A DNA stretch of 64,000 nt from an uncultured Candidatus Saccharibacteria bacterium (GTDB lineage: Bacteria; Patescibacteriota; Doudnabacteria; UBA920): contig CAZHIA010000002.1 of the NCBI GenBank assembly GCA_964532425.1, positions 13,945-77,944 on the forward strand, written 5' to 3'. Shown here piece by piece: positions 4,160 to 12,105 of the stretch (positions are counted from its first letter, which is position 1; each line of letters opens with the position of its first letter). Below the pieces are notes generated by a model, which saw only the letters and a list, made by a program, of their open reading frames with translations, did not search any database and was not told the origin of the DNA. The translations under genes and the position numbers were made by a program.

Positions 4160-6091
4160 ATGAATCTCTCTTCGCTTTCCTCAGAACTCAATATGTCCAT
4201 TCAAGAGCTTCGCTCGCAGGCGCGTGCGAAGGGATTTTTCATTTCCGACAAAGCGAACAAAATTGATAACTACCTTGCCAAAAAAATAGTAGAAGCCTTG
4301 CGGCCGGACGTTGCAGCCCGCCACCAGCCCCAGACCAATGGCAAGCCGAAAAAAGTTAAACTCCCCACTTTTATTAAAGTCCGCGACTTTGCCGTACTCT
4401 TAGAACTTCCCGTTACGAGTGTCATCAAAGTCCTCATCCAGAACGGAGTCATGGCCACCATTAACGAAGAGATCGATTTCGACACTGCCGCGATTGTGGC
4501 CGGCGATCTTGGATTCGAAGTGGAAAGCCAGGCTGACCAGTCTACCCAGGAAATCGGTCTTGGGTACTTGCAAGAAGTACTCAAAGCTGAAAAAGAAGAA
4601 GACCTGCGGCCCCGGCCGCCAATCGTCGCTATTATGGGACACGTCGACCACGGTAAGACCACCCTGCTCGACACCATCCGCAAGACCAATGTGGCGGCAG
4701 GGGAGTCCGGCGGCATTACCCAGCACATTGGTGCCTACCAGGTTAAAAAGAACGGCAAGACCATTACCTTTTTGGATACTCCGGGCCATGAAGCGTTTTC
4801 GGAAATGCGCGCCCGCGGCGCCAACGTGACCGACTTAATCGTATTGGTCGTAGCAGCCGATGACGGCGTGCGCCCGCAAACCCTGGAAGTCATCAATCGC
4901 GCCAAGTTTACCAACACGCCGATGATCGTGGCCATCAACAAGATCGACAAGCCCGAAGCCAACATCATGCGCGTCAAGCAGGAACTGGCCGGCCAGGGCG
5001 TGCTCACCGAAGAATGGGGTGGCAAAACCATCGCAGTGGAAATCTCCGCCAAGCAAGGCATTGGCCTCGACAATCTTTTGGAAATGATCCTGCTTACTGC
5101 CGAAATTGAGAACTTCCGCGCCAATCCACACGGCAAGACCATCGGTACTATCATCGAATCGAAAATGACCCATGGTAAGGGCTCGACTGCGTCCGTTATA
5201 GTCCAGAATGGCACACTCCGCGTGGGAGATATAATTGTAGCCGGCGCAGCCTATGGACGCATTCGCTCGCTCGATGACGAAAACGGCCGCAAGCTTAAGG
5301 AAGCCGGGCCGTCCTGTGCTGCGCAGATCTCGGGTTTTTCCGAAGTTCCGCAAGCGGGCGACATTCTTCAGACCATGCCAACTCTGGATGAAGCTAAACA
5401 AATCGCCATTGCCGCCCAGAAACGCGCCCAGAGCCACCGTTTGCATGCACGCCAAATCCTGCAAGGAGACGCGGAAAGCAAAACCTTGAATTTGATTATC
5501 AAAGCCGATGTCGCCGGTTCTTTGGAAGCCATTAAACAGTCCATTGGAAAACTGAAGAACGACGAAGTAAAGATCAATATCTTAAGCGAAGGCGTTGGTG
5601 AAGTGAACGAGTCGGATATTATGCTGGCAGACAACTCCAAAGCAAGCATTATTGCCTTCCGAAGCAAAGTAAACCCCAAAGCCGCAAATCTCGCCAAGCA
5701 AAAAAATACACTGGTCGACACGTATGATGTCATTTACGAGCTGATCGAAGATGTTACCTCAGCGGTCATTAAGATGTTCACGCCGGAATTGGAAAAGATC
5801 AGTTATGGCACGGCCAAGGTTCTTGCCATTTTCCGCACGGAAAAGAATCAAATGATCATCGGCGGCCGGGTCGAACAGGGCGAACTCCGCAAGAACGGGC
5901 AGATTGGCATCAACCGCGACGGCGCCGAAGTTGGCCGCGGAGAAATTTTAGAACTTCAGCACAGCAAGGTAGTCACCAAGAATGTCCAAAGCGGTGAAGA
6001 ATTCGGCATCAAGATTAAGACCAACGTGAAAATCAAGGAAGGGGACACTCTGGAGAGCTTCGAAGAAAAGATCAAGCAGAAGACACTGTAA
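4160..6091 (+). CDS. infB: translation initiation factor IF-2 (short-N-terminus form)
   Basis: GTP-binding motifs [27 protein letters not shown]; C-terminal IF-2 domains. Confidence 0.9.
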
Positions 6092-10499: not shown

Positions 10500-10673
10500 A
10501 AAAATTAGCCTGACATTCTATAAGCCATTATACCATGTAAGACAGTAATAACCGCATAATGTATAGAGTTTTTTACACCGGCCAAACAGTATATAGAGAG
10601 CTATAAAGTGGTTAAATATTACCTTGCTTCAAGTTGAAACGTAAGCCTAATTCCTATGTAATCTTGATCGATA

Positions 10674-10701
10674 TAGAAAAAACATTCCGTAAAGGGATGT
10701 T
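10674..10701 (-). terminator. intrinsic terminator at end of minus-strand tRNA cluster transcript
   Basis: minus strand reads acatccctttacggaatgt + ttttttc. Confidence 0.45.
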
Positions 10702-10709
10702 CTTTCATA

Positions 10710-11130
10710 TGGAGCGGCTAAGGGGAATTCCGCCTTGCGGCCCTGCAGGGCCGCTTCGTTGTCCAGGACAGGGGTACCCCTAAAATGCCTTCGGCATTTT
10801 TGGGGAATCCCCTGGGCAGCGCTGAAGTGCTATCCGTAGCACTTCAGCGGCGTTCGCTGCATCCCGCTCTGCTGAGCAGGATTAGCTCACTGCTGCCCGT
10901 TCGATTCCCCTTGCGCCGTATCAAAAAAGAAATTGCCCCACCCACAAGGGGTGAGGCACTTTCTTTTGGAGCGGCTAAGGGGAATTCATCGCGCTCGGCT
11001 TCTGCTGAAGCCTCACTTGTCCATGGGTTGCCAAAATGCTGCGCTAGCTCGCATTTTGGGTTGCTCGACTGCTACTTTTGCTGCAGCAAGAGTCTTGTCT
11101 CACTTCAACCCAGTTCGATTCCCCTTAGCC
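10710..11130. repeat. array of tRNA-Gly 3'-end fragments in alternating orientation
   Basis: TGGAGCGGCTAAGGGGAAT at 10710-10728 and 10967-10985 (minus sense); GTTCGATTCCCCTT(A/G)(G/C)CC at 10899-10917 and 11112-11130 (plus sense). GC-rich hairpin-laden spacers between them. Confidence 0.7.
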
Positions 11131-11180
11131 TATAATCTATCCAAAGAAAAATACTCCAGACAAGCTGGAGTATTTTTCTT

Positions 11181-11254
11181 TGGAGCGGCTAAGGGGAATC
11201 GAACCCCTATCCTCTCCATGGCAAGGAGAAGTTCTACCATTGAACCATAGCCGC
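11181..11254 (-). tRNA. tRNA-Gly (anticodon GCC), CCA encoded
   Basis: revcomp GCGGCTATGGTTCAATGGTAGAACTTCTCCTTGCCATGGAGAG...GGGGTTCGATTCCCCTTAGCCGCTCCA. Confidence 0.85.
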
Positions 11255-11317
11255 GTAACGTATAGATATTATACCAAATCTCTAAAATTTTACCAGCCTC
11301 ATTCCATGACCGCACGC

Positions 11318-11498
11318 TCGTTCGTGGCATGCCATGTACCTGATCGAAGCGAATGAAGGTGGCAGTGAACCATTCAGCTTTCGGCCTCAGGTACACTGCA
11401 CTCACCACTCACTTCGTTTAAGTACATAGCATTTCTTAAATCGATTGCTTCGGTATGGTTCGTGGCATGCCATGAACCCGAACGAAGTGAGTGGTTCG
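11318..11498. repeat. ~45-bp imperfect direct repeats (GTTCGTGGCATGCCATG(t/a)ACC...) abutting tRNA-Phe
   Basis: R1 11318-11362, R2 11454-11498; inverted CGAAGTGAGTGG segment between. Confidence 0.45.
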
Positions 11499-11573
11499 TG
11501 GTGCCGGAGGTCAGAATCGAACTGACGACACGACGCTCTTCAGGCGTCTGCTCTACCACTGAGCTACTCCGGC
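11499..11573 (-). tRNA. tRNA-Phe (anticodon GAA), CCA encoded
   Basis: revcomp GCCGGAGTAGCTCAGTGGTAGAGCAGACGCCTGAAGAGCGTC...GTTCGATTCTGACCTCCGGCACCA. Confidence 0.85.
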
Positions 11574-11763
11574 AAAATAAGATGAAAATTTGAGGGTGCA
11601 ACTCCAATTGCCCTAATGCTTACACTGCGCAGGGCACTACTCTACTGTCACTAAGCGGAAAACACTCGTTTATAATCACTTAAAGGAGAAGGGTCCTTGC
11701 ACTTCGAAGCCTTGGCGAAGAAGTGGTGGGCGATACAGGAATTTCACCCCGCACCATTTCTCG

Positions 11764-11840
11764 TGGTGGGTCCGACAGGATTCGAACCTGTGACCTCCTC
11801 GGTGTAAACGAGGCGCTCTAACCAGCTGAGCTACGAACCC
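11764..11840 (-). tRNA. tRNA-Val (anticodon TAC), CCA encoded
   Basis: revcomp GGGTTCGTAGCTCAGCTGGTTAGAGCGCCTCGTTTACACCGAGG...GGTTCGAATCCTGTCGGACCCACCA. Confidence 0.85.
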
Positions 11841-11896
11841 GTTTTACATATAATATCAAGCCCGAAGATATTTCACCAGAAATGGTGCAGGGCGGG

Positions 11897-11934
11897 CCTG
11901 TGACCTCCTCGGTGTAAACGAGGCGCTCTAACCA
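11897..11934 (-). pseudogene. 38-nt tRNA-Val fragment (duplicate of T-stem/anticodon-arm/D-loop segment)
   Basis: Identical to 11787-11824; flanks do not form acceptor or T arms. Confidence 0.6.
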
Positions 11935-12105
11935 TCCGCCTCCGCCAACAGGCGGATGGCGGATAACCGCCCAGGAGTCACAAAGGTTAGCTCAAGTACT
12001 ATAACAAAAACTGCCTTTCCTTGCAAGAGCCTATCCAGCCAAAATATGGCAAAAAAACCGCAATTGCGCTACACTAAGCGTAAGGTAAATCTTAATTGAA
12101 ACCAA

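Follow-up and report, generated by a model that had tools for sequence, protein, structure and literature searches.

The region between positions 10,710 and 11,130 of the window (the whole 64-kb stretch of DNA that was analysed) probably consists of two RtT-like elements in tandem, associated with a tRNA-Gly gene. The tandem modules are members of a widespread, covarying family in Patescibacteria. Each ends in a copy of the 3' end of the neighbouring tRNA and begins with an arm complementary to it, and in this they resemble the RtT repeats of E. coli.

Two structured units behind tRNA-Gly

The features of the array, listed in the order in which they are met on the minus strand, are as follows.

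11268-11276, minus strand: candidate extended -10 element TGGTATAAT, starting point of tRNA-Gly about 13 nt further on, from direct reading
11181-11254, minus strand: tRNA-Gly(GCC) with encoded CCA (ARAGORN; Rfam tRNA model, 68.9 bits)
11140-11184, minus strand: perfect 20-bp hairpin with a U-run, directly 3' of the tRNA and taking in its UCCA (repeat search)
10967-11130, minus strand: unit 2, 164 nt (model R1, 111.2 bits, E = 1.8e-26; repeats, folding, alignments A1 and A2)
10925-10967, minus strand: terminator-like hairpin after unit 2, stem 10934-10958, tail UUUCUUUUU (terminator scan, repeat search)
10710-10917, minus strand: unit 1, 208 nt (model R1, 85 bits, E = 9.5e-20; repeats, folding)
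10681-10701, minus strand: hairpin after unit 1 (from the plus-strand scan), then UUUUUUC on the minus strand (read directly)

The repeated 19-mer corresponds to tRNA-Gly positions 58-76 (ATTCCCCTTAGCCGCTCCA on the minus strand; source 11181-11199) and is copied identically at 10967-10985 and 10710-10728. The repeat search recovered it as part of a direct repeat in three copies, CTTTC.T.TGGAGCGGCTAAGGGGAAT, at 10702-10730, 10959-10987 and 11173-11201, the third of which is tRNA-Gly itself. Both downstream copies run on as ...AATTC, whereas tRNA-Gly itself reads ...AATCGAA. Inverted copies were found in the same search at 10896-10912 and 11110-11126, and we took 10899-10917 and 11113-11130 as the 5' arms; the arm at 11113-11130 is a perfect complement of 11187-11204 over 18 nt. 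The 13-mer GGCTAAGGGGAAT occurs exactly four times, always within 10716-11199 and nowhere else in the 64 kb, where the chance expectation for exact copies is about 0.002.

An earlier, sequence-only reading of this DNA had reported most of this anatomy, and its sequence statements are all confirmed. ARAGORN and Rfam agree with its tRNA-Gly(GCC) at 11181-11254 on the minus strand; the repeat search returned both of its 19-nt recurrences, and their continuation with TTC, against CGAA in the tRNA, holds on direct reading. The complementary copies that it gave at 10899-10917 and 11112-11130 are present (the second arm being 11113-11130), as are two units of 208 and 164 bp that share hairpins, aaaatgc..gcatttt and gctgaag..cttcagc being common to both spacers. 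It had also noted no integrase nearby, and we found none within about 6 kb.

The minus (tRNA) strand is the natural reading frame, in which each unit closes with the 19-mer and opens with the complementary copy as its 5' arm. The order on this strand is tRNA, hairpin, unit 2, hairpin, unit 1, hairpin, with spacers of 56 nt from tRNA-Gly to unit 2 and 49 nt from unit 2 to unit 1. The hairpin at 11140-11184 resembles a terminator and separates the tRNA from unit 2, and the one at 10925-10967 has 93% identity (blastn) to the hairpin behind the tRNA-Gly of a related locus, L007. The array likely ends at the hairpin at 10681-10701. A consensus promoter scan did not flag the candidate extended -10 element upstream of tRNA-Gly.

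The paired ends of each unit form a closing helix, P1, which imitates the T-stem end of a tRNA, the 5' arm being complementary to the T-loop and the 3' strand of the T-stem of the adjacent tRNA. Within P1 the core consists of a helix P2 enclosing hairpins P3 and P4, followed by a hairpin P5, and is joined by purine-rich junctions (AAGCGAG, GAGCG and AGGGCAACGAG). Unit 2 has a 5' arm (11113-11130) matching tRNA positions 53-70 perfectly in inverted form, a P2 of GGGUUG/CAACCC with P3 and P4 inside, a P5, and a 3' end (10967-10985) copying tRNA positions 58-76. The 5' arm of unit 1 (10899-10917) is an exact inverted copy over 14 nt (10899-10912), its body comprises P2 (GGGCAG/CUGUCC, with one G·U), P3, P4, an extra hairpin inserted at 10771-10811 and P5, and its 3' end (10710-10728) again copies positions 58-76. 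Folding energies are -67.9 kcal/mol for unit 2 (z = -4.9 against shuffles) and -118.5 kcal/mol for unit 1 (z = -8.1). A covariance model search of the 64-kb window returned only these two unit copies, both at tRNA-Gly.

A 3' end identical to that of the tRNA, including the discriminator and CCA, might mark a chargeable tRNA mimic, tmRNA- or minihelix-like, that is charged by GlyRS or used by a tRNA-dependent enzyme, and the 13-bp P1 of unit 2 has approximately the length of an acceptor/T minihelix. We judge such a mimic very improbable, as the units have no T-loop and carry its complement in the 5' arm, unit 2 lacks the acceptor pairs G1-C72 and C2-G71, most family members leave the acceptor 3' strand unpaired, and no Rfam tRNA or tmRNA model matches the units. 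The 5' arm carries the T-loop complement and not its sense strand, which excludes a permuted or split tRNA. A tmRNA-like 5' similarity (GGAUUCGACGGG against GGAAUCGAACGGG) was one of resemblance only and was dropped.

A covarying family behind tRNA genes

The same layout of tRNA, hairpin, unit and 19-mer was found in eight genome loci from Saccharibacteria, Doudnabacteria and other Patescibacteria, and a covariance model gave 108 matches in 100 metagenome loci. The metagenome loci were chosen by the 5' motif, so the invariance of this motif across them is by construction. Units lie behind tRNAs or in arrays wherever the upstream flank is available, about 50 nt downstream of tRNAs of eight identities (Gly, Glu, Trp, Leu, Lys, Thr, His and Pro). 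Among 69 first units the spacer from the tRNA is 18-68 nt long (median 53), and the last 15 nt of the tRNA recur exactly in 43 and with at most two mismatches in 54. Both unit arms match the local tRNA, tandem arrays are frequent, and unit lengths across the family range from about 110 to 210 nt. The repeat starts at tRNA position 58 and its identity stops at the gene-encoded end of the tRNA in 34 of 41 cases, its length being 19 nt where CCA is encoded and 17 nt where it is not. For 21 of 41 units the body with the highest similarity sits behind a tRNA for another amino acid, as in a Trp/Glu pair at 90% over 138 nt.

Covariation supports the structure. An alignment of 30 sequences has 90.8% of its cells paired, compared with 77% after shuffling and about 40% with slid partners, and double changes in 19 of 30 pairs; the corresponding values for 95 distinct sequences are 90.9% against 76.9% shuffled, with double changes in 22 of 30 pairs, and none of 500 shuffles of this larger set matches the observed covariation on any measure. 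P1 changes with the local T-stem, reading GGGG/CCCC behind Gly, GUAGG/CCUAC behind Trp, GCGGG/CCCGC behind Leu and CUGGG/CCCAG behind Pro tRNAs. Columns 1-2 of P1 are paired in only 40-53% of sequences, and the family as a whole mostly leaves its acceptor 3' strand unpaired.

We screened the window and 28 related loci with Rfam release 15 at gathering and permissive thresholds and obtained only tRNAs and chance-level matches, with no RtT, tmRNA or ribozyme; the sequence-only reading had proposed such a scan of the spacers for structured RNAs, and no family matched. A literature search for Patescibacterial structured RNAs linked to tRNAs found none. The family is a new covarying structured-RNA candidate in genome-reduced bacteria, lacking any match in that Rfam release.

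These results bear on the first interpretation in the sequence-only reading, a graveyard of integration and excision in which the copies would be attL/attR fragments of phages or islands at tRNA-Gly. Partial 3'-end copies downstream of a tRNA are expected of such scars, and the reading had pointed out that tRNA 3' ends are classical integration sites. Integrases typically leave repeats that span the T-loop and reach the tRNA 3' terminus, and we do find this span here (position 58 to the gene end). Because conserved, covarying bodies stand behind eight tRNA identities, we consider integration scars hardly credible: the intervening sequence belongs to a family of about 110-210 nt with compensatory changes in many phyla-level lineages, each copy carries an inverted arm that scars do not produce, and no phage, island or mobility genes lie nearby. 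The reading itself had named identical architecture and covariation in related genomes as the observation that would speak against scars, and both were found. Partial tRNA 3' ends near tRNAs are routinely annotated as att sites, which they do not appear to be here, and annotators should be cautious accordingly.

On the tRNA strand the core helices contain 19 G·U/U·G cells and 3 A·C/C·A cells, and because of this bias we take the tRNA strand as the functional one. The junctions are purine-rich on this strand, terminator-like hairpins follow 34 of 41 units, and this strand has the lower folding energy in 30 of 46 units (mean difference 2.3 kcal/mol); folding energy alone is weak evidence of strand, and the counts of G·U against A·C are more informative. 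The G·U bias would equally arise in a folded single DNA strand. An RNA of the opposite strand would open with 19 nt complementary to the tRNA-Gly 3' end in the manner of a primer-binding site or a sponge for the tRNA. The two strands fold with similar energies, A·C/C·A cells outnumber G·U/U·G cells by 11 to 7 in the outer part of P1, and some pairs are A·C on the tRNA strand but would become G·U on the opposite one (arm pairs such as GAGGAAU/AUUCCCC in loci L023 and L032, and one P3 pair in unit 2), but the core counts and the majority of folding comparisons favour the tRNA strand, the loops of an opposite-strand RNA would be pyrimidine-rich, the flanking hairpins have their better U-runs on the tRNA strand, and RttR of E. 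coli is encoded on that strand too. An opposite-strand RNA is therefore very improbable.

Comparison with RtT and other known systems

RtT elements (Rfam RF00391, RttR) are the '178-bp repeats' of the E. coli tyrT-tyrV operon, which have been unexplained since 1978. They number 1-14 copies per E. coli genome. Like the window units, they lie in tandem on the same strand as a tRNA gene and directly behind it, after a spacer of about 55 nt, and like the Patescibacterial units in general they end in a 19-nt copy of tRNA positions 58-76 including CCA, in their case from tRNA-Tyr. The RtT 5' arm likewise repeats the T-stem and the acceptor 3' strand in inverted form and serves as the closing-helix partner of the 19-nt copy, GGGGAAGGAU pairing with AUCCUUCCCC in the tyrT and tyrV units, and the annotated sRNA rttR has its 3' end at the CCA of the 19-nt copy. 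Both groups share a helix topology of P1 around P2 with two hairpins followed by a purine-rich 3' segment, and bodies with many GAGCG/AGCGAG motifs. One Saccharibacterial unit, L040, has GGAUGAGAAC...GGUUCGACUCG in common with RtT.

The two differ in core sequence and in the extra hairpin P5 of most Patescibacterial copies. Whereas RtT is tied to tRNA-Tyr only, the Patescibacterial units are tied to at least eight tRNA identities and usually have hairpins resembling intrinsic terminators between tRNA and unit and between successive units; the hosts are Enterobacteria for RtT and Patescibacteria for the window family. RF00391 (gathering score 45 bits) gave no match on window positions 10500-12100 at E up to 10 or on 28 related Patescibacterial loci (20 + 8) at E up to 5-10, and model R1, which represents the Patescibacterial units, gave no match to E. 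coli RtT at E up to 1. Since the covariance models do not cross-detect, the link to RtT rests on architecture and not on demonstrated homology. On this comparison the window elements appear to be RtT-like, sharing a known design in a new sequence family. The RtT design is common in Patescibacteria, in several sequence families and with at least eight tRNAs, both ends tracking the local tRNA, which makes a curiosity known from a single E. coli operon into a general phenomenon that needs a mechanism.

Small RNAs from tRNA spacers, such as 3'ETS-leuZ of E. coli, are stable RNAs from behind a tRNA that are freed by tRNA processing and pair with sRNAs. Release of a stable RNA by the tRNA-processing machinery is the way of working that we propose by analogy for the units, although spacers of the 3'ETS-leuZ type have no copy of the tRNA 3' end and are not repeated. 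The integrative elements that target tRNAs, and CIMEs, accrete in tandem at tRNA 3' ends, and their direct repeats from the T-loop to the tRNA 3' end, in tandem next to an intact tRNA, resemble the array; Williams reportedly described classes of such integrase repeat spans in tRNA genes in 2002. In contrast to CIMEs, the units are about 200 bp long, have no integrase, cargo or att-flanked genes, and possess an inverted arm and covarying RNA-type structure. Of the hallmarks of an integrative element, the repeat from inside the tRNA to its 3' end is present, and integrase and island genes are absent. REP/BIME, REPIN and attC sequences are also short GC-rich extragenic palindromes in alternating orientation whose structure is kept more than their sequence, and they can form arrays and act as terminators. 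However, neither REPs nor attC sites have a link to tRNA genes or copy the end of an adjacent gene, and they need RAYT or IntI, for which we see no equivalent here. Sequences similar to rtT have been linked with BIMEs (PMC2965389).

The units do not qualify as MITEs or non-autonomous transposons, since their termini copy the local tRNA and are not element-specific. The second suggestion of the sequence-only reading, a tandemly inserted non-autonomous element with inverted, tRNA-derived termini, stands as a description of the anatomy, and no evidence of transposition was found.

Mobility and proposed mode of action

The window array is surrounded by genes for IF-2, RbfA, a DHH phosphoesterase, an RNHCP protein and a type IV pilin, and Pfam found no recombinase among 10 neighbouring proteins, which have housekeeping domains or weak or absent matches. 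Clustering of 750 ORFs within 5 kb of units revealed no recurrent integrase, transposase or reverse transcriptase, the top clusters being housekeeping; the sequence-only reading had proposed looking for the units beside an integrase elsewhere, and none recurs. The idea of tRNA-primed reverse transcription, which came from the 58-76 span, was dropped with no reverse transcriptase in support. The unit motif is absent from 2.9 million viral contigs, in which the 19-mer has two matches, both to lone tRNA genes.

The most substantial competing explanation is a non-autonomous integrative DNA element of miniature size (about 200 bp), in the form of a circle or a folded single strand, with tRNA positions 58-76 as its attachment site and a recombinase of the host or a phage supplied in trans. 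Its P1 hairpin would reproduce the duplex of the 3' region of the tRNA gene, much as in integron attC or the attP of CTX phage, and it would insert at the T-loop/3' end, placing the newest copy nearest the tRNA, with RNA expression incidental. Repeats running from the T-loop (position 58) to the gene-encoded end are the block that tRNA-targeting integrases leave, and they keep a recombinase-based explanation alive at low to moderate probability. Tandem arrays, related bodies behind different tRNAs, degenerate and truncated unit copies, and a patchy distribution among genomes with identical tRNA-Gly also fit this explanation, as does the G·T tolerance, which is compatible with folded single-stranded DNA. 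Compared with L007, the window has one additional module beside the tRNA: the hairpin that stands behind tRNA-Gly in L007 stands behind unit 2 in the window, as if each element carries a trailing hairpin of its own and new ones land next to the tRNA. None of the fetched loci is a close relative suited to comparing empty and filled sites, and L007 allows a partial comparison only.

Against the miniature element are the lack of mobility genes near the window units and within 5 kb of units elsewhere, and of any unit in the viral contigs. An integrase also cannot explain how the attachment site is reset to each tRNA without first breaking it. The conserved purine-rich single-stranded junctions and A·G mismatches resemble RNA tertiary motifs, and the E. 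coli counterpart is a detected RNA. We consider the miniature element unlikely on this evidence.

Returning to the RtT-like RNA element, we infer both its function and its mode of spread. Transcription of the module would run in the same direction as that of the tRNA, by read-through or from its own weak promoter. Given the tRNA-like 3' terminus of the module, the enzymes of tRNA 3' maturation may trim it to an end matching that of the tRNA and release a stable small structured RNA, by analogy with RttR. A strong terminator-like hairpin stands between tRNA and unit in 35 of 41 cases, so co-transcription may be inefficient. We found neither a sharply positioned promoter nor a fixed -10 box upstream of units, a region dominated by the U-run of the preceding hairpin. 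As the acceptor 3' strand is unpaired in most units, recognition by tRNA-processing enzymes is not guaranteed. Nor does a 'stability tag' require exact identity of the 19-mer, which therefore needs selection, gene conversion or a copying mechanism. Modules could be gained, lost, duplicated and exchanged among tRNA loci by recombination, for which the repeated tRNA 3'-end segments and the conserved core would provide the homology. The similar bodies behind different tRNAs and the additional module of the window relative to L007 speak for such exchange. Genome-reduced bacteria keep little non-essential DNA, which suggests that the element either has a function or exploits tRNA loci efficiently as a parasite.

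More tentatively, the units and E. coli RtT could form one unrecognised class of cassette together with at least two further families, namely the type II units (found behind tRNA-Leu and tRNA-Gly) and a group of shorter ones (L040, L027 and L043 among them). Such cassettes would home to the 3' side of any tRNA gene by complementarity to the universal T-loop, their arms being rebuilt from the local tRNA by copying or template switch without an element-encoded enzyme. We give this possibility some weight while doubting it; if true, mobility or concerted evolution would here take a new form, with RtT as its only described, and misunderstood, example. In the few type II cases the 5' arm follows the local T-loop, as with GACUCGAA behind a tRNA-Leu with the T-loop UUCGAGU.

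The tRNA-Gly(GCC) array in the window

The sequence-only reading described the repeats accurately: the tRNA-Gly gene and the direct and inverted copies of its 3' end were all confirmed. A repeat search returned three copies of the plus-strand image of the tRNA-Gly 3' end (CTTTC.T.TGGAGCGGCTAAGGGGAAT; at 10702, 10959, and 11173) and two inverted copies (10896-10912 and 11110-11126), and the 13-mer core has four exact copies inside 500 nt and none in the remaining 63 kb. The region forms an island with a GC content of 0.55-0.62 amid AT-rich flanks, arranged as follows.

Features of the tRNA-Gly array, in minus-strand order
11181-11254, minus: tRNA-Gly(GCC), 3' end ...CCA
11140-11184, minus: hairpin between tRNA-Gly and unit 2, perfect 20-bp stem and U-run
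11130 to 10967, minus: unit 2, 164 nt
10934-10958 (stem), minus: hairpin after unit 2, then U-run
10917 to 10710, minus: unit 1, 208 nt
10681-10701, minus: hairpin after unit 1, then U6

Both units start with (GGCUAA)GGGGAAUCGAAC, the reverse complement of tRNA positions 53-70 with the T-loop complement included, and end with AUUCCCCUUAGCCGCUCCA, a copy of tRNA positions 58-76; the arm at 11113-11130 perfectly complements the tRNA bases 11187-11204 over 18 nt. The ends of each unit pair to give a multi-branched fold whose closing helix mimics the T-stem side of the tRNA, leaving a ...GCUCCA tail free, with predicted folding energies of -67.9 kcal/mol for unit 2 (z = -4.9) and -118.5 kcal/mol for unit 1 (z = -8.1). 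A covariance model built from 30 Patescibacterial units (R1) scores 111 bits on unit 2 and 85 bits on unit 1, with no further matches in the 64-kb window.

A covarying family of tRNA-linked units

The window units are members of a conserved family and not local debris. A genome scan with the 19-mer of the tRNA-Gly end found 47 loci, mainly in Saccharibacteria, Doudnabacteria, and other Patescibacteria, eight of which have paired matches 197-214 nt apart; these eight share motifs and the window's order of tRNA, hairpin, unit, 19-mer, and hairpin, and their hairpins differ by compensatory changes. A metagenome scan that fixed the unit 5' motif and the beginning of the core but placed no constraint on the 3' end found 106 loci. 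Upstream of the motif, at a distance of 18-68 nt (median 53), stand tRNAs for Gly (GCC, UCC, CCC), Glu (CUC, UUC), Trp, Leu, Lys, Thr, His, and Pro, and the last 15 nt of the local upstream tRNA are repeated at the unit 3' end exactly in 43/69 cases and with at most two mismatches in 54/69. Units often stand in tandem arrays (for example in the comparison loci L074, L050, L072, L091, and L109).

The layout of 46 units yielded a common plan, in which P1 is the closing helix formed by the two tRNA-derived ends and P2-P5 are helices of the body.

Order of elements in a unit
1-2: 5' arm; CGAAC
3: P2 (GGGCAG, GGGUUG, GGGUAG, GGGCGG or GGGUGG, each with a matching 3' strand)
4-6: AAGCGAG; P3 hairpin (variable); GAGCG
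7-8: P4 hairpin with a conserved A·G at its base; P2'
9-11: AGGGCAACGAG; P5 hairpin (variable); GAGGCGGAAUUCC
12: T-stem 3' strand, acceptor 3' strand and discriminator of the local tRNA, with CCA if gene-encoded

Support for the paired columns
MAFFT, 30 units, aligned independently of structure: paired cells 90.8%; shuffled 77%; slid partners about 40%; double changes in 19/30 pairs
Model-fitted, 95 distinct units: paired cells 90.9%; shuffled 76.9%; slid partners 33-42%; double changes in 22/30 pairs

The covariation score of the MAFFT alignment was 0.404 vs 0.151 (0/500 shuffles). The 95-unit alignment gave 0/500 shuffles on every measure. It was fitted to the model and is biased toward it, and the sequences are mutually related; even so, the margins over shuffles are large. 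AAG(C/U)GAG pairs with CGA(G/A)CG as C-G (n = 20), U-A (n = 6), or U·G (n = 3 sequences), and P1 changes in step with the T-stem of the local tRNA (GGGG/CCCC for Gly, GUAGG/CCUAC for Trp, GCGGG/CCCGC for Leu, CUGGG/CCCAG for Pro). What is shown is a tRNA-gene-linked module on the tRNA strand whose structure is conserved and covaries, and whose two ends both derive from and match the local tRNA.

Since the opposite strand of units 1 and 2 folds about equally well, folding energy alone cannot fix the strand. An excess of G·U pairs in the core helices (19 G·U/U·G vs 3 A·C/C·A cells on the tRNA strand), a better fold on that strand in 30/46 units, and junctions that are purine-rich on it point to the tRNA strand as the functional one. 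These results are also compatible with a folded single strand of DNA, so an RNA nature is probable only by inference.

The same logic extends to other elements. In 63 of 282 distinct tRNA contexts from the fetched loci, a sample biased by the choice of loci, the last 15 nt of the tRNA are copied within 330 nt downstream; 45 of the 63 carry a type I or type II 5' motif, and the 18 that lack one include some paralogous tRNAs and other, distinct elements. Type II units keep the 5' arm logic and the 3' tRNA-end copy around a different core (...GGGGGUCGCCGCAGCG...GAGCAUAGCGGGAGGUGACCGAGUC), and their 5' arm tracks the local T-loop variant, reading GACUCGAA behind tRNA-Leu(GAG) with T-loop UUCGAGU.

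Further units
Type II: L009:103-262, L042:2431-2588, L028:4061-4226, L026:6913-7072
Type II behind tRNA-Leu(GAG): L008, L023, L026, L032
Short units: L027, L043, L046, L040

Resemblance to the E. coli RtT repeat

We compared the units with the tyrT-tyrV locus of E. coli K-12, which has the same design. There, a spacer of about 57 nt separates tRNA-Tyr from an RtT unit whose start, GGGGAAGGAUGAGAAC, matches 13/16 bases of the reverse complement of tRNA-Tyr positions 53-69, whose body is GC- and purine-rich with GAGCG/AGCGAG motifs, and whose ending, AAUCCUUCCCCCACCACCA, is tRNA-Tyr positions 58-76. These are the '19 nucleotides' classically described for the 178-bp repeats. The Rfam RtT model (RF00391) finds three copies at tyrT-tyrV (112-137 bits), and its consensus has the topology of the Patescibacterial units, with P1 formed from two tRNA-derived ends and P2 holding two hairpins. 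E. coli genomes carry 1 to 14 copies (median 3). The annotated sRNA rttR has its 3' end exactly at the CCA of the 19-nt copy; a preprint describes its mode of action as still unknown (10.1101/2024.07.17.603846), and rtT-like sequences have been linked to BIME repeats (PMC2965389).

RF00391 did not detect the Patescibacterial units and R1 did not detect E. coli RtT, so 'RtT-like' refers here to the architecture of the window units and not to membership in RF00391. We class the window element with the RtT kind as a new form, much more widespread and varied than the single example described. By analogy with RttR, the units would be expressed as RNA and then trimmed to a tRNA-like 3' end.

A short unit behind a Saccharibacterial tRNA-Gly (L040, about 4250-4370, minus strand) has GGAUGAGAAC...GGUUCGACUCG in common with E. 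coli RtT, a sequence match that hints at real kinship in this one case. The 13-mer GGCGGAUGAGAAC, also found in L040 and RtT, opens another element after a unit in L115 (about 2530-2560). RF00391 matched neither the L040 nor the L115 element.

Turnover of units and other elements near tRNAs

Units are patchily present across genomes sharing an identical tRNA-Gly 3' end, and the most similar body sits behind a tRNA of another amino acid in 21/41 cases; one Trp and one Glu unit, for example, share 90% identity across 138 nt, with both arms still fitting the local tRNA. One Saccharibacterial genome has near-identical units behind tRNA-Gly(GCC) (L032) and tRNA-Gly(UCC) (L020), the latter with a GCC-type end on the proximal unit and a UCC-type end on the distal one. 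The window and L007 have the tRNA, hairpin A, and a unit 1-like arrangement in common, and the window has an additional module, made up of hairpin X and unit 2, adjoining the tRNA. Degenerate and truncated copies occur. Arrays may gain, lose, and swap bodies by recombination via the repeated 3'-end segments and the conserved core.

The proposal of a graveyard of repeated integration and excision was wrong, and plain integration scars are effectively excluded; the alternative offered with it, a small element with tRNA-derived inverted termini, was anatomically right. There is no recurrent integrase, transposase, or reverse transcriptase in the 5 kb around the units, whose neighbors in the window encode IF-2, RbfA, a DHH protein, an RNHCP protein, and a pilin, and no units were found in IMG/VR. 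We consider it unlikely that a recombinase acts on the units in trans.

The direct repeat begins at tRNA position 58 and spans 19 nt with an encoded CCA or 17 nt without. Identity ends 0-4 nt from the gene-encoded tRNA end in 34/41 cases, the few long extensions past it being recent tandem duplications. In the 5' arm, the inverted copy is perfect over 10-14 nt in most units and over 17-24 nt in some, including window unit 2. Terminator-like hairpins occupy the tRNA-unit interval in 35/41 cases and follow the unit in 34/41. The 19-mer stays identical to the neighboring tRNA, yet its acceptor strand is mostly unpaired. The candidate processes, both for this upkeep and for how a unit first gains arms that fit a new tRNA, are gene conversion, template switching within the quasi-palindrome of tRNA 3' end, hairpin, and 5' arm, and a trans-acting recombinase that works on a folded strand.

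Other tRNA-related sequences were seen in passing. At L028:3990-4010, a degenerate tRNA-Gly 3' end (..CGUCCCUUAGACCGCUCCA) and a hairpin, with no tRNA, precede a unit; the body of the upstream tRNA has apparently been lost. In the window, 21 nt downstream of tRNA-Val (11764-11840), lies a degenerate copy of its 3' end (11724-11743, minus strand; AAUUCCUGUAUCGCCCACCA vs AAUCCUGUCGGACCCACCA), with GGGGUGAAAUUCC, similar to the 3' junction of units, in front of it; the copy may be what is left of a deleted unit, or else a unit in minimal form. Upstream of tRNA-Val, the region 11879-11990 (minus strand) contains 37 nt (11897-11933) identical to tRNA-Val from D-loop to T-stem, set in a different GC-rich frame (GGGCGG...CCGCCC); because it scores only 17.5 bits against the Rfam tRNA model, we regard it as a tRNA-like structure or a pseudo-tRNA. 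The genuine tRNA-Val is enclosed by the two arms of a 19-nt inverted repeat (11747-11765 and 11874-11892).

A second kind of GC-rich structured element lies between tRNA-Phe and the putative tRNA-Gly promoter (11290-11498, minus strand), with two copies of a GUUCGUGGCAUGCCAUG-like sequence (11320-11355 and 11458-11493) and, in this region, three occurrences of a CCA-CGAAC string, one at the tRNA-Phe 3' end. It matched neither R1 nor Rfam; in L057 a unit is followed by a similar sequence (GUGGCACGCCACGAG..ACGAAGUGAG), and about 43 nt of it are conserved in L025. Group I introns were matched near units in tRNA-rich Patescibacterial loci at L057:615-905 and L040:5249-5477 (54 and 74 bits).
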